From positions 608,001 to 672,000 of the forward strand of contig JAVZCZ010000001.1 of assembly GCA_038874135.1 (NCBI GenBank): 64,000 nucleotides of DNA, in the 5' to 3' direction. Positions within the stretch are counted from its first letter, which is position 1, and the number at the start of each line of letters is the position of its first letter. Below are positions 41,186 through 48,044 of this stretch, piece after piece. Below the pieces are notes generated by a model. That model was not told the DNA's origin. It made no database searches and saw only the letters and a program-made list of their open reading frames with translations. This stretch comes from Candidatus Woesearchaeota archaeon (GTDB taxonomy: Archaea > Nanobdellota > Nanobdellia > Woesearchaeales > 0-14-0-80-44-23). A program made the translations under genes and the position numbers.

Positions 41186-41258
41186 AGCCTCTGGAGGGAC
41201 TTGCACCCTCGACCTACTGATTACAAGTCAGTCGCTCTAGCTCCTGAGCTACAGAGGC
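41186..41258 (-). tRNA. tRNA-Thr(TGT)
   Basis: GCCTCTG acceptor, anticodon arm ACTGA-CTTGTAA-TCAGT, T-arm GAGGG-TGCAAGT-CCCTC. Confidence 0.93.
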
Positions 41259-42903: not shown

Positions 42904-44259
42904 TCACCTGAACCTTATACTACTCCCGCCAACCTTTCCAACCTTCCTTACAAGCTGTTCAAGGTTTCGCGGAGTCCCGCCGGAGAATGCTTTTATAAGC
43001 TTCTTACTCTGTTTATACTGCTTTAAGAGCTCCCTGACATCCTTAGCAGATGTTCCAGAGCCGCGCGCAATCCTTTCAACCCTTCCAAAGTCAATTATTT
43101 CCGGATTTTCCAGTTCATATTTAGTCATTGAGTCCATAATGAACTTCCAGCGCTTAAGCTTTTCATCCTGCACAGAAATTAGCTCCTTAGGAATTGAAGC
43201 GCTGCTGAGTCCAGGAATCATATTTATAATGCTGCTGAGAGGTCCCATCTTTTTAACTGCTTGCATCTGCTCATAGAGATCTAATAGGTTAAAGTCTCCT
43301 TTCAGCATTTTATCTTTGATTTTTTCAGCATCTTTTTCAGAAATTGCATCTTTTGCTTTCTCCAGCAGAGCGTCTATGTCCCCCATTCCGAGCAGCCTTG
43401 AAACAAATCCTGCGGGGTTGAACTCTTCTAAGTCCTCAATTTTTTCTCCAACACCTATAAACTTGACCGGGGTTCCAGTCGCTGCGCAGGCAGATAGTGC
43501 ACCCCCTCCCTTGGCAGTGCCCTCCATTTTTGTTATTATTACCCCAGTTATCTTGCAGTTGGCATGAAAGCTTTCCGCCTGAAATCTTGCACTCTGTCCA
43601 ATGTCAGCACTTATTACGAGAAGGTTTTCATCCGGCAGGATGCGCTCGTAGAGAGCTCTTATCTCCCTTATCAACTCATCTGAGAGAGCATCCCTTCCAG
43701 CAGTGTCTATTATTGCTATGTCATACTTCTTTATCTCATCTTCAAACTTTTCATATATCTTTAAAGCATCTCCAAGCTTAGGATCGCCATATACTGGCAC
43801 GCCGATTGACCTTCCAAGCTGTGTGAGCTGTTCAAAGCCGGCGGGCCTGTATATGTCTGTTTGGAGCAGGCAGACTTTGAATCCTCTTTTCTGGAAGAAT
43901 CTTGCGAGTTTTGCAGCCTGGGTTGTCTTTCCAGAAGCGTACAGCCCCACTAGCATTATTTTGAAGTTTTTCTTGTTAACTTCTATCTTAGCGCCCTTTT
44001 CTCCGAGAAATCTGACAAGCTCTTCATAAACTATCTTTATGAGCTGTTCCTTCTTGCTAAGCCCGGGGGTTTCCTCTTTTAAAGCGCGCTCTCTTATCCT
44101 GCTGGAAAGTTCAAAAACCAGTTTTACATCCACATCAGATTGGAGAAGTGCCTTCTGAATCTCCTTCACAAGCTCATTTATCAGTTTTTCATCTACAAAT
44201 AGGCTTTGAGATATCCTCTTTAGCACTCCTCTGAGAGAATCTCCAAGTTTTTCCAGCAT
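42904..44259 (-). CDS. srp54: Signal recognition particle protein SRP54
   Basis: SGKTT, DTAGR, TKMEGTAKGGGALS, RIARGSG. Confidence 0.97.
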   Translation of the reverse strand: MLEKLGDSLRGVLKRISQSLFVDEKLINELVKEIQKALLQSDVDVKLVFELSSRIRERALKEETPGLSKKEQLIKIVYEELVRFLGEKGAKIEVNKKNFKIMLVGLYASGKTTQAAKLARFFQKRGFKVCLLQTDIYRPAGFEQLTQLGRSIGVPVYGDPKLGDALKIYEKFEDEIKKYDIAIIDTAGRDALSDELIREIRALYERILPDENLLVISADIGQSARFQAESFHANCKITGVIITKMEGTAKGGGALSACAATGTPVKFIGVGEKIEDLEEFNPAGFVSRLLGMGDIDALLEKAKDAISEKDAEKIKDKMLKGDFNLLDLYEQMQAVKKMGPLSSIINMIPGLSSASIPKELISVQDEKLKRWKFIMDSMTKYELENPEIIDFGRVERIARGSGTSAKDVRELLKQYKQSKKLIKAFSGGTPRNLEQLVRKVGKVGGSSIRFR

Positions 44260-44352
44260 TTTATACTGAGCATTCTAAATCTTTTTATAAATTTATTGCG
44301 GAACCCATCCTAATCCAAAAGTTTATATACCTTTGGCGGTTTTTTGGATTTT

Positions 44353-44411
44353 GGGCTATCTTTTGAAGTTTTTTATTATTTTTTCAAGCCCTGTTGTAGA
44401 GGGATGAAAAA
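44353..44411 (+). promoter_or_regulatory. thrS 5' leader with tRNA-Thr anticodon-like hairpin occluding the SD and start codon
   Basis: TTTTTCA-AG-CCCT-[GT TGT AG]-AGGG-A-TGAAAAA; TATA box TTTATATA at 44322. Confidence 0.6.
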
Positions 44412-46315
44412 TGGTCGTAGTAAACATGGGAAATTCTAAGCACGTATTTAAAAGCGGAATTACCTGTAGTGAGATTGCAGGCTCTCTAAATATTAAAGAC
44501 GCAGTTGCTGCTAAGGTTGATGGAGAGCAGGTTGACCTGTCATACCGCGTGGATAAGGATTGCACTCTTGAGTTCATAAAGCTGTCCTCTTCAGATGGGC
44601 TAACAATCCTTAGGCATACAGCAGCGCACATACTCGCACAAGCAGTTCTGAGATTATTTCCCAAAGCTCTTCTGACAATAGGGCCAGCTGTGGAAGATGG
44701 CTTTTATTACGACATAGACCATGAGCCTTTCACCCCGGAAGACATTAAAAGGATTGAAGAGGAGATGCATAGAATAGTCAAAGAAAACCTTCCAATCATA
44801 AGGGAAGAGATTTCAAAAGAAGAAGCATTGAAGCTTTTCAGCAAAAATCCTTACAAGATTGAGATGATAAATGAGCTTCCAGGCGGCATTGTTTCAATTT
44901 ATAGGCAGGGGGAATTCTTTGACCTGTGCAGGGGCCCACACCTTCCGTATACCTCTCTTGTGAAGGCGTTTAAGCTTACTAAGATTGCAGGCGCATACTG
45001 GCGCGCAGACGCTAAAAACAAGCAGTTGCAGAGAATATACGGCATCGCATTTCCGGAAGAAAAGCAGTTAAAATATTACATTACCATGATGGAAGAGGCA
45101 GAGCAGAGGGACCATAGGAAGATAGGAAGAGAGATGGACCTGTTCAGCTTTCACGAAGAGGGCCCGGGATTTCCTTTCTTTCACCCAAAGGGCGTAATAA
45201 TTCTAAATGAGCTCGTTCAGTTCTGGAGGGAAGAGCATTCCAAGGCAGGCTATCAGGAGATAAAGACGCCGATAATTCTTTCAAAGACACTCTGGGAGCG
45301 CAGCGGTCATTGGGAGCACTACCGCAATAACATGTACTTCACTAAGATTGATGAGAAGGACTTTGCTGTAAAACCGATGAACTGCCCAGGAGGCATTTTA
45401 GTATACAAATCCTCCCCTAAGAGTTATAGGGATCTTCCTCTCAAACTTTCTGAGCTCGGATTAGTGCACAGGCACGAGCTTTCAGGAGTGCTCTCGGGAC
45501 TATTCAGGGTGAGGTGCTTCACTCAGGACGATGCGCACATCTATGTTACAGAGGACCAGATAGAGGAGGAGGTAGTGAATGTTGTCAGACTGGTAGACAA
45601 GTTTTACAAGAAGTTCGGATTTGAATACCATGTAGAACTATCCACCAGGCCTGAGGATTATATGGGCGAACTTGAACTTTGGAATAGAGCAGAGTCAAGC
45701 CTTAAGCACGCTTTAGAATCCTTAGGAATGAAATATAAGATTAATGAGGGAGACGGAGCATTTTATGGACCTAAGATAGACTTTCACATAAAGGACTGCA
45801 TAGGCAGGACATGGCAGTGCGGCACTGTTCAGCTGGACTTTCAGATGCCCATAAAATTTGACCTGGAGTATGACGGGCAGGATGGAAAGAAGCACAGGCC
45901 AGTGATGATTCACAGGGTTGTTTATGGAAGTCTTGAGAGGTTCTTAGGCATTCTTATTGAGCACTACGCTGGAAGGTTCCCGCTTTGGCTGGCTCCAGTT
46001 CAGGTCAGAATTCTTACGGTTGCGGACAGGCATAATGAGTATGCTTCTCAGATAGAAAACATGCTCTCATCTAAGAAGCTGAGGGTTGAACTGGATTCGA
46101 AGGCTCAGACCATCGCCTATAAGGTGAGAGACGCTCAGCTGCAGAGAATTCCAGTGATACTCACAGTGGGTGATAAGGAAGTAAGCTCCAGAACAGTTGC
46201 ACTTAGGACTCTGGACGGAAGGGTTAAGTTTAATGTTGATCCAGCTAAGCTGACTGAAATCCTCATAAGGAATGTTGAGGAGCGCTCTAACTCTTTAGAG
46301 CTTGATGGAATTTAA
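44411..46315 (+). CDS. thrS: Threonyl-tRNA synthetase, bacterial type
   Basis: TGS domain, editing motifs HTAAH and DLCRGPH, KPMNCP, FTQDDAH, GAFYGPKID. Confidence 0.97.
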   Translation: MVVVNMGNSKHVFKSGITCSEIAGSLNIKDAVAAKVDGEQVDLSYRVDKDCTLEFIKLSSSDGLTILRHTAAHILAQAVLRLFPKALLTIGPAVEDGFYYDIDHEPFTPEDIKRIEEEMHRIVKENLPIIREEISKEEALKLFSKNPYKIEMINELPGGIVSIYRQGEFFDLCRGPHLPYTSLVKAFKLTKIAGAYWRADAKNKQLQRIYGIAFPEEKQLKYYITMMEEAEQRDHRKIGREMDLFSFHEEGPGFPFFHPKGVIILNELVQFWREEHSKAGYQEIKTPIILSKTLWERSGHWEHYRNNMYFTKIDEKDFAVKPMNCPGGILVYKSSPKSYRDLPLKLSELGLVHRHELSGVLSGLFRVRCFTQDDAHIYVTEDQIEEEVVNVVRLVDKFYKKFGFEYHVELSTRPEDYMGELELWNRAESSLKHALESLGMKYKINEGDGAFYGPKIDFHIKDCIGRTWQCGTVQLDFQMPIKFDLEYDGQDGKKHRPVMIHRVVYGSLERFLGILIEHYAGRFPLWLAPVQVRILTVADRHNEYASQIENMLSSKKLRVELDSKAQTIAYKVRDAQLQRIPVILTVGDKEVSSRTVALRTLDGRVKFNVDPAKLTEILIRNVEERSNSLELDGI

Positions 46316-47344
46316 TCATTCAAGAACGCCTTCCCGTTTTTTTATCTCTTTTATTAACTCTTCTCTTTTGAAGTCTTCTCCCAGTTTCTTTCTTATCTCA
46401 AATTCAACTCTATAAGCATTGTAGTTTTTCATGATCTTATCTACATAATTTATGATTTCTTTTGCCTTATCCTTCGGGTATGAATAATATTCTGAACAGG
46501 CTTTTTCTATGTATGGAACTAAGTCTTTCCACTCTTGCTCCCAGTATGCCTTGCCATTATCTCTAGATGCCATTTTTACAGCGTCTCTAACTACGCTTTG
46601 ACCACCGTTGTATGCAGCGAGTACCAGCTTTAAGTGTTCCCATCTTAGTTTGTAGTATCTTGCTGAATCTCTTTCTTTAAGCCATTCGGGCGGCTCGCAG
46701 AATTTAAGGTAGCTCTCCTTCTCATTAAGTATTTTTATTCCAGCCCTTATATTTGAATATGGGTCAAATCTGTTCTTCCAATCTTCTGCACTGACGCTGT
46801 TACGCATTATCTGCATCAGGCCTGAAGCTCCGCATTCAGATATACACCTTTCATTCCAAGTGCTTTCTGATTCTATTATTGCAGCTATGAGGGCAATGTC
46901 TTTCATTTTAGAGAATTCGTTTAGGATGTTCCAATATTTTTCAGGCATGTTTATTCTCTGGTAATTTTTTATGTAGTATGCCATTTCAGCTTCTGGAATT
47001 TTAGAAAGCACTTCTTCAAGAGATTTGTTGTTAGCTCTTGTCTCTTTCAGCTGCATTCTCTGAGCAGTAGCTTCCAAACCTTTCAGCTCCACACCGCAAA
47101 TTCCAGGAGTTTTGCCAATGTTAATCTGGACTACATTTGATGTTTCATAATTTTGTGTTTTATAGCAATCATACTTCTTGTCTTTTGAAATTCCCTTCGC
47201 AATACCCAGAGCCAGCAGTCCAACTCCGATAATTCCTGCTGCTGCTTTAATCAAGTTTTTCTTTCTTTTCCTTTTTTCTTCATAATCCAATCTGCCGGCA
47301 TCAGGGTTATTATACATGAATCGGAGCATCGGGTCTTTTTCCAT
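46316..47344 (-). CDS. Membrane-anchored lytic transglycosylase (SLT domain)
   Basis: LIAAIIESESTWN, S..GASGLMQIM, FDPYSNIRAG, LAAYNGG, E..NYVDKIM; N-terminal signal anchor. Confidence 0.92.
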   Translation of the reverse strand: MEKDPMLRFMYNNPDAGRLDYEEKRKRKKNLIKAAAGIIGVGLLALGIAKGISKDKKYDCYKTQNYETSNVVQINIGKTPGICGVELKGLEATAQRMQLKETRANNKSLEEVLSKIPEAEMAYYIKNYQRINMPEKYWNILNEFSKMKDIALIAAIIESESTWNERCISECGASGLMQIMRNSVSAEDWKNRFDPYSNIRAGIKILNEKESYLKFCEPPEWLKERDSARYYKLRWEHLKLVLAAYNGGQSVVRDAVKMASRDNGKAYWEQEWKDLVPYIEKACSEYYSYPKDKAKEIINYVDKIMKNYNAYRVEFEIRKKLGEDFKREELIKEIKKREGVLE

Positions 47345-47369
47345 ATTTGTTACTAAGTAGTAGTGATAT

Positions 47370-48044
47370 TTAAATCTTTTGTTTTTTCGCGTTATCAAAT
47401 AGTATTTTCATAATAAGAAACAATATGACTTCTTCAATTGCTGTTGCTATCAAAACAAAAAACAGCCCATCCATAAAGAACCTTTCTGGAAAAAAAATTA
47501 GGATTCTGCTCCCTAAAGGAAACTGCCAGTTTCCCATTTTAAAAAATATTGCATGAAAACCAATGAAAGCTGCTGAGAAAACATTCCTAAAACAAACTGA
47601 AAATCCTAAGATAATCACTAGAAAGAAAGTGGCAAAAATCATTTTTCTAAGACATACAAAAAAATTATCCAGCATAGCTGTACTTACTGCTAACATCATA
47701 AGTAAGCCTGCCAAACAGACAATATAAACCTTAAACCCGAATTTAAACAAATTCTTAACATCATTCAGATGAGACGCTTCTTCTACACTAAAAATCCCCT
47801 CGCTGAGGGAAGCCCTTCCAACTAAAAAATCTGGGAATGTGTTAATGAATGATTCTGCGTCTTCCCTTGCAATTCCTACCTGTTCCAGCTCGCCATAAAT
47901 ATTTAGACGGTAGAACTCAAGCCTATACCATGTCTCACTGAAGGCAAGTGCGAAAGTGTTTGAAAGCATTAGAATAAATAGCAGGATTAAAGCCGCTAAG
48001 AAAGAAGATATCCAGCATAGTGCAACCTTGCTAATCTTTACCAT
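47370..48044 (-). CDS. DUF1461/Lit-like integral membrane protein (lipoprotein intramolecular transacylase family)
   Basis: Four TM; E.SHL.DVK.LF and F..FH.IFF...NW.F....L..FPE.FF motifs with both His residues. Confidence 0.75.
   Translation of the reverse strand: MVKISKVALCWISSFLAALILLFILMLSNTFALAFSETWYRLEFYRLNIYGELEQVGIAREDAESFINTFPDFLVGRASLSEGIFSVEEASHLNDVKNLFKFGFKVYIVCLAGLLMMLAVSTAMLDNFFVCLRKMIFATFFLVIILGFSVCFRNVFSAAFIGFHAIFFKMGNWQFPLGSRILIFFPERFFMDGLFFVLIATAIEEVILFLIMKILFDNAKKQKI

Follow-up and report, generated by a model that had tools for sequence, protein, structure and literature searches.

Threonyl-tRNA synthetase (ThrRS) of E. coli binds anticodon-like hairpins upstream of the thrS start, excludes the 30S subunit and obeys the identity rules of the tRNA in doing so (PMC11088916, PMC9976931, PMC3858243); exchanging the anticodon of the operator for CAU shifts control from ThrRS to MetRS (PMC11088916). 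The literature that we found describes control of synthetases by tRNA mimics in E. coli and yeast only. In yeast, the mRNA of AspRS contains an anticodon mimic (PMC9976931), and synthetases that bind their own mRNAs are reported (PMC6542539). The translational autoregulation found for archaea was that of L7Ae, which represses its own translation via a k-turn in its 5' UTR (PMC5539422). Autoregulation of an archaeal synthetase by tRNA mimicry was not found in the literature searched, from which subscription journals were largely absent, and the matching of synthetase levels to tRNA supply in archaea is little described.

The window considered here (the whole stretch of 64,000 nucleotides that was analysed, from a Woesearchaeota archaeon) contains a thrS gene preceded by a hairpin that presents a threonine anticodon. 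A sequence-only reading of the window had proposed an anticodon mimic for translational autoregulation by ThrRS, built as a two-state switch. The core of that proposal is strengthened by the conserved loop, the covarying stems and the predicted leader described below; the two-state switch did not hold up as a general feature. Like the E. coli thrS operator (domains 1-4; PDB 1KOG, 1QF6), the locus combines a bacterial-type ThrRS with a stem-loop that displays a Thr triplet in the enzyme's own leader, by the ribosome-binding site, and competition with tRNA-Thr, as in E. coli, is predicted. However, the E. coli operator is bacterial, whereas host and promoter are archaeal here. The E. coli operator has two mimics (domains 2 and 4), whereas the archaeal leaders, about 30-70 nt long, have one, mostly with UGU. 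No second mimic equivalent to domain 4 was found in the source leader, whose upstream hairpin lacks a GU loop and excludes the mimic; in L036, L038 and L049, a second hairpin with a 7-nt loop lacks G35-U36. The Shine-Dalgarno sequence (SD) is unpaired in E. coli but lies inside the stem in the source genome, most other families matching the E. coli geometry. Thus, the hairpin would act like the E. coli operator, but is not classed as a member of that type because the second mimic and the unpaired SD are absent.

The remaining systems are further removed. The T-box riboswitch of Bacillota also places thrS under the control of tRNA-Thr status, but it does so as a long RNA to which the tRNA itself binds, whereas the leader predicted here measures 58 nt. 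In this leader, we found no T-box motif, no terminator-like site and no relevant Rfam match (two chance matches only, E 3-4), and a scan for bacterial-type promoters and terminators saw none. The nearest bacterial ThrRS matches do come from Bacillota, with leaders that carry a T-box-like consensus. This, together with the scattered occurrence of the hairpin on the ThrRS tree, suggests an origin separate from that of the E. coli operator, on a tree whose deep support is poor. The yeast cases, too, involve an mRNA whose anticodon-like stem-loop is read by a synthetase, but they are eukaryotic and without SD occlusion, and the RPC10 case involves another target gene and a positive effect. L7Ae is likewise an archaeal protein that represses itself through a substrate-like RNA at the SD, but pairs a ribosomal/sRNP protein with a k-turn rather than a synthetase with a tRNA mimic.

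The genome comprises 910 kb in a single contig and derives from hot-spring metagenomes, obtained by DNA sequencing in one study; the named ThrRS nearest to its enzyme is from Woesearchaeota. The sequence-only reading had called the enzyme bacterial in type, which is borne out by its Pfam domains, TGS, tRNA_SAD (editing), tRNA-synt_2b (catalytic) and HGTP_anticodon (anticodon-binding), and by its match to 1QF6 (E 2.7e-181). No second ThrRS was found in the genome, leaving this gene as the sole one detected. Residues R583, E600 and R609 of 1QF6, which we take to be those reading G35 and U36, have R, E and R as their equivalents in 24/24 ThrRS enzymes with a mimic, including the present one. The features of the locus are collected in Table 1.

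Table 1. Features of the thrS locus, in window coordinates
Feature	Position	Strand	Remarks
SRP54	42904..44259	-	divergent from thrS; own TATA-like box near 44283-44290
Archaeal BRE + TATA box (predicted)	44316..44329	+	best PWM site, start 89 nt upstream of AUG
Fold B (alternative 5' hairpin)	44353..44391	+	44353-57 and 44364-68 pair with 44382-91; U-rich loop
Fold A (extended)	44380..44411	+	lower stem 44380-86/44405-11 plus mimic; SD and A of AUG buried; MFE
tRNA-Thr anticodon stem-loop mimic	44389..44403	+	4-bp stem, loop 44393-44399, anticodon UGU 44395-44397
Shine-Dalgarno-like sequence	44399..44407	+	overlaps 3' strand of mimic stem
thrS	44411..46315	+	634-aa bacterial-type threonyl-tRNA synthetase; AUG A = 44411

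The thrS transcript probably has a leader. A PWM for BRE/TATA, trained on the upstream regions of thrS genes, scored the box at 12.4 and its runner-up at -1.9, and the box recurs 72-101 nt from the AUG in 10 loci of the family, even where the divergent gene is a different one. Since the boxes of predicted leaderless thrS genes cluster 30-31 nt from the start, which we used as calibration of the box-to-start spacing, a box at 89 nt from the AUG places the predicted transcription start near 44352-44354 and gives a leader of about 58 nt. A leaderless transcript, which would have told against the sequence-only reading, is not predicted, the sole good BRE/TATA pointing to a leadered one. Transcription without a leader from a U-rich box some 40 nt upstream was considered and rejected (score -1.9 vs 12.4).

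The stem CCCT/AGGG (44389-92 with 44400-03) closes a 7-nt loop in which UGU occupies loop positions 3-5 between U33 (44394) and A37 (44398), exactly where the sequence-only reading had put it, and loop positions 33-37 are identical to those of the genome's own tRNA-Thr(UGU). The lower stem, which according to that reading sequesters the SD together with the A of AUG, is part of the minimum-energy structure, but the best match to the anti-SD falls slightly 3' of the GAGGGA hexamer it had named, the 3' end of 16S rRNA pairing best at about 44400-44407 (-8.4 kcal/mol). SD words are enriched before starts throughout the genome (e.g. 55 vs 1 and 27 vs 4), which thus relies on SD pairing, and the SD of the thrS leader is about 70% paired according to a folding computation. 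The alternative pairing also exists: when both states were folded at 37 C, constrained fold B gave -8.1 against -10.6 kcal/mol for fold A, and the gap shrinks to about 1-2 kcal/mol at 55-70 C. The computed probability of the mimic stem falls from about 0.92 at 37 C to 0.5-0.6 at 70 C. That of fold B does not exceed 13% in the source leader and reaches 25% in L072 at 70 C. A folding z-score of -0.29 puts the 59-mer at the level of its shuffles (-2.5 for 44370-44425), and so the significance of the hairpin rests on relatives. An out-of-frame AUG within the SD opens an 11-codon frame (44404-44439, + strand) that overlaps the thrS start; it is seen in L004 and L072 as well and probably arose as a side effect of the SD variant.

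The relatives were drawn from a first set of 159 thrS leaders, all distinct, from GTDB genomes of the order and from a held-out set of 112 further genomes, for which the rule was fixed beforehand. A hairpin with a 7-nt loop bearing U33, G35 and U36 and ending 8-30 nt before the start was present in 11/159 thrS leaders of the first set; the same detector found it at 5/422 neighbouring genes, and shuffles gave a mean of 1.2 and a maximum of 6. Circularity was avoided by choosing sites solely for a U-Y-G-U sequence between -8 and -36 and scoring the stem afterwards. The following p-values are overstated, kin not being independent, and 11 families against about two chance matches is the safer count: a stem accompanied 12/32 such sites at thrS and 10/198 at control genes (p 2e-6); UGU was the sole clearly enriched triplet of the 64 (11/159 vs 7/1261, p 4e-7; next triplet 0.02); the held-out set gave 5/112 vs 10/1261 (p 0.005); and a looser detector admitting any GU loop was weak (p 0.018), becoming stronger once U33 was required. 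The held-out hits added four new families, and four of the five had six of six pairs. Over both sets, a stable U33-Y34-G35-U36 hairpin occurs in 17/271 thrS leaders (11 GTDB families), 0/271 antisense sequences and 2/1450 control genes, with a stability filter that was added post hoc (the 9/271 antisense matches all had dG > 0, and all 17 sense hairpins had -4.5 kcal/mol or below). Among long leaders of the first set, 10/33 have a mimic, as against 0/129 predicted leaderless thrS genes. A covariance model reached only about 18 bits and was left out of genome scans, and alignment A2, chosen on the stem, makes pair counts circular and is excluded as proof.

Among 28 distinct hairpins selected for U33, Y34, G35 and U36, 26 have A at the unselected position 37, and 27 have U at position 34; the remaining one has C there, giving CGU, the other Thr anticodon. 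In the closest relative, L031/L072 (80% identity), the stem and the UUGUAG loop are kept with one change, at position 32. The conserved loop with a covarying stem that the sequence-only reading had asked to look for is thus what the relatives present: the loop is constant, and the stems differ throughout, by compensatory and G-U changes among others. This comparison of sequences establishes the hairpin as a real conserved RNA element. The detector missed some variants, namely hairpins of family f7 (L028, L351, L373) that lie directly 5' of the SD and present UGU in a loop of 4-6 nt on a long stem, a C33 loop in L317 (f126) and an 8-nt loop in L102. In a separate group (L060-L062, L065, L114, L115, L117 and L118), the ThrRS match begins only at about residue 230, with 53-67% identity; these enzymes have a differing N-terminal domain, probably an archaeal editing domain, and no mimic near their starts.

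Covariation is documented in the genus g159, picked by taxonomy, in which 11/11 thrS leaders have the mimic and 96% of cells are paired. Four stem pairs are doubly changed (covariation 0.398 vs 0.205, 0/500 shuffles), and exchanges between U-G and C-G retain pairing on the sense RNA only. In one member, L281 (G405), a leader typical of the genus precedes a strongly diverged ThrRS (46% identity); placement of this enzyme with its genus mates was rejected at p-AU 0.0008, for a group noticed after inspection of the tree, and a coding region replaced in place with its leader retained is possible.

Placement of the hairpin varies. The loop ends 20-23 nt before the AUG in 20/28 hairpins, with the SD 3' of the stem, and in most families the hairpin nearly fills the leader and stops just 5' of a free SD. 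In the source genome and L072, the loop ends 10-11 nt before the AUG, and the SD is the 3' strand; hairpin and SD also overlap in L048 and L352, and family f126 has only a few bases between stem and AUG. Wherever the hairpin lies, a bound enzyme would cover the initiation region, and this speaks for repression. In L269 (G238), the mimic and an SD lie about 65 nt upstream of thrS, displaced by a 45-nt insert that contains two more hairpins, the last pairing a second SD.

Taking binding, competition and the negative sign from E. coli, and given the leader, hairpin, conservation, covariation, Thr triplet and enzyme type found here, we consider it likely that the hairpin is a translational operator through which ThrRS blocks its own translation. 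ThrRS free of tRNA-Thr would bind the loop via its anticodon-binding domain, recognize G35 and U36 there as it does in the tRNA, and keep the small ribosomal subunit off the thrS mRNA. In most families, the enzyme would sit just 5' of the SD (loop end 16-23 nt before the AUG) and block by bulk; in the source genome, where the SD itself forms the 3' side of the stem, binding would also lock it. When demand for tRNA-Thr is high, the tRNA would titrate ThrRS and thrS would be translated. Some observations fit autorepression less well. Occurrence is patchy (about 6% of the thrS leaders in the order, scattered on the ThrRS tree with 11-12 changes, gains or losses), and L002, of the same genus, has no mimic. 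Each leader has a single mimic although ThrRS is dimeric. Loop positions 32 and 38 are mostly G and G in the mimics, where tRNA-Thr has C and A, and the equivalents of N575 and K577 (E. coli numbering) are changed in these archaeal ThrRS.

A two-state switch confined to one lineage may have been added to autorepression, a proposal that we regard as tentative. While the leader is being transcribed, the 5' hairpin would form first and leave the SD open, and ThrRS would then capture the fold that buries SD and AUG. In its favour, folds A and B share 44389-91 and are mutually exclusive both here and in L072; their energies are close at 55-70 C, in keeping with the origin of the sample in a hot spring; and both have been retained between genomes with 20% ThrRS divergence. 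However, fold B has the low probability given above, only two independent sequences have both folds, and only three lower-stem pairs of fold A are retained in L072. Only in the source genome and L031/L072 was an SD inside the stem seen together with a competing 5' hairpin, no competing arm being seen in the leaders of ten other mimic-bearing families, and for most families a switch would be unnecessary. Moreover, the 5' arm of fold B is conserved within the family, its 3' arm is re-paired in L002, L032, L035, L072 and L073, and the hairpin persists in L002, L032, L035 and L073, all four without the mimic; it must have another reason to exist, and is probably a decayed ancestral mimic hairpin. 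In L083-L085, the hairpin homologous to fold B itself bears a UGU loop. The simplest history may be that fold B represents an older mimic hairpin, its loop having decayed to a run of U, and is overlapped here by a second mimic. The full scenario, in which a portable one-hairpin mimic repressing thrS arose in Woesearchaeota independently of E. coli, and probably repeatedly, and was rebuilt here into an SD-burying two-state switch, is possible, but we would not favour it.

Two other readings accept the hairpin as functional but dispute its effect or its reader, and we find both unlikely. ThrRS might bind the mimic with a positive effect, raising translation or stabilizing the mRNA, as yeast ThrRS binds an anticodon-like element of the RPC10 mRNA and supports its translation (PMC9956033), and human TARS1 builds an initiation complex (PMC11088916). 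However, a stabilized hairpin should block initiation in the four leaders where it overlaps the SD and in f126, where it is near the AUG, and positive feedback directed at the enzyme itself would be hard to rationalize. Alternatively, the reader could be a tRNA-modifying enzyme, a nuclease or an RNA-binding protein, or the hairpin could be a mere 5' stabilizer; positions 32 and 38 are conserved and not tRNA-like, the leaders are short, and the hairpin begins near the predicted 5' end. Yet a stabilizer would have no need for a fixed loop, and a different reader fits poorly with a hairpin confined to thrS that displays only Thr anticodons (UGU, once CGU), a quick pass over nine other synthetase genes of the source genome having seen no cognate loops. 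Least probable, by a little, is that the hairpin of the source genome is a chance fold or an inverted repeat acting as a DNA operator: the 59-mer folds no better than its shuffles, only 4 pairs close the loop, it lies at -11 rather than the usual -20 to -23 and L002 lacks it, but its loop agrees with the consensus across the order, chance would yield a strict mimic (4 pairs, D-U-Y-G-U-A-K loop) at about 6e-4 per 29-position leader window (35 in the genome, both strands), it is kept in L072 despite diverged flanks, and G-U pairs with strand asymmetry indicate RNA.

If ThrRS autorepression holds, a covarying mimic in 11 families would bring synthetase autoregulation to the third domain and provide a defined cis-regulatory RNA, absent from Rfam, for the uncultured DPANN archaea. 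A minimal operator of 25 nt lets one ask if one hairpin serves a dimeric ThrRS, and hairpin and enzyme are testable in vitro, culture of the organism being unnecessary.

The surroundings of thrS offer some further observations. The tRNA-Thr(UGU) gene (window 41186-41258, - strand) lies 3.1 kb from thrS and has the same anticodon as the copy in the leader. A tRNA-Thr(GGU) with a 40-nt intron (G000 C1:250942-251071) was detected at a relaxed threshold only, and tRNA-Ser(CGA) has two calls in the genome, one with an intron. Convergent with thrS, with abutting stops and a synteny that is family-wide, is a gene for a lytic transglycosylase (SLT, PF01464; window 46316-47398, - strand). The SLT fold acts on murein, yet the host is archaeal, which perhaps reflects contact with bacterial cells.
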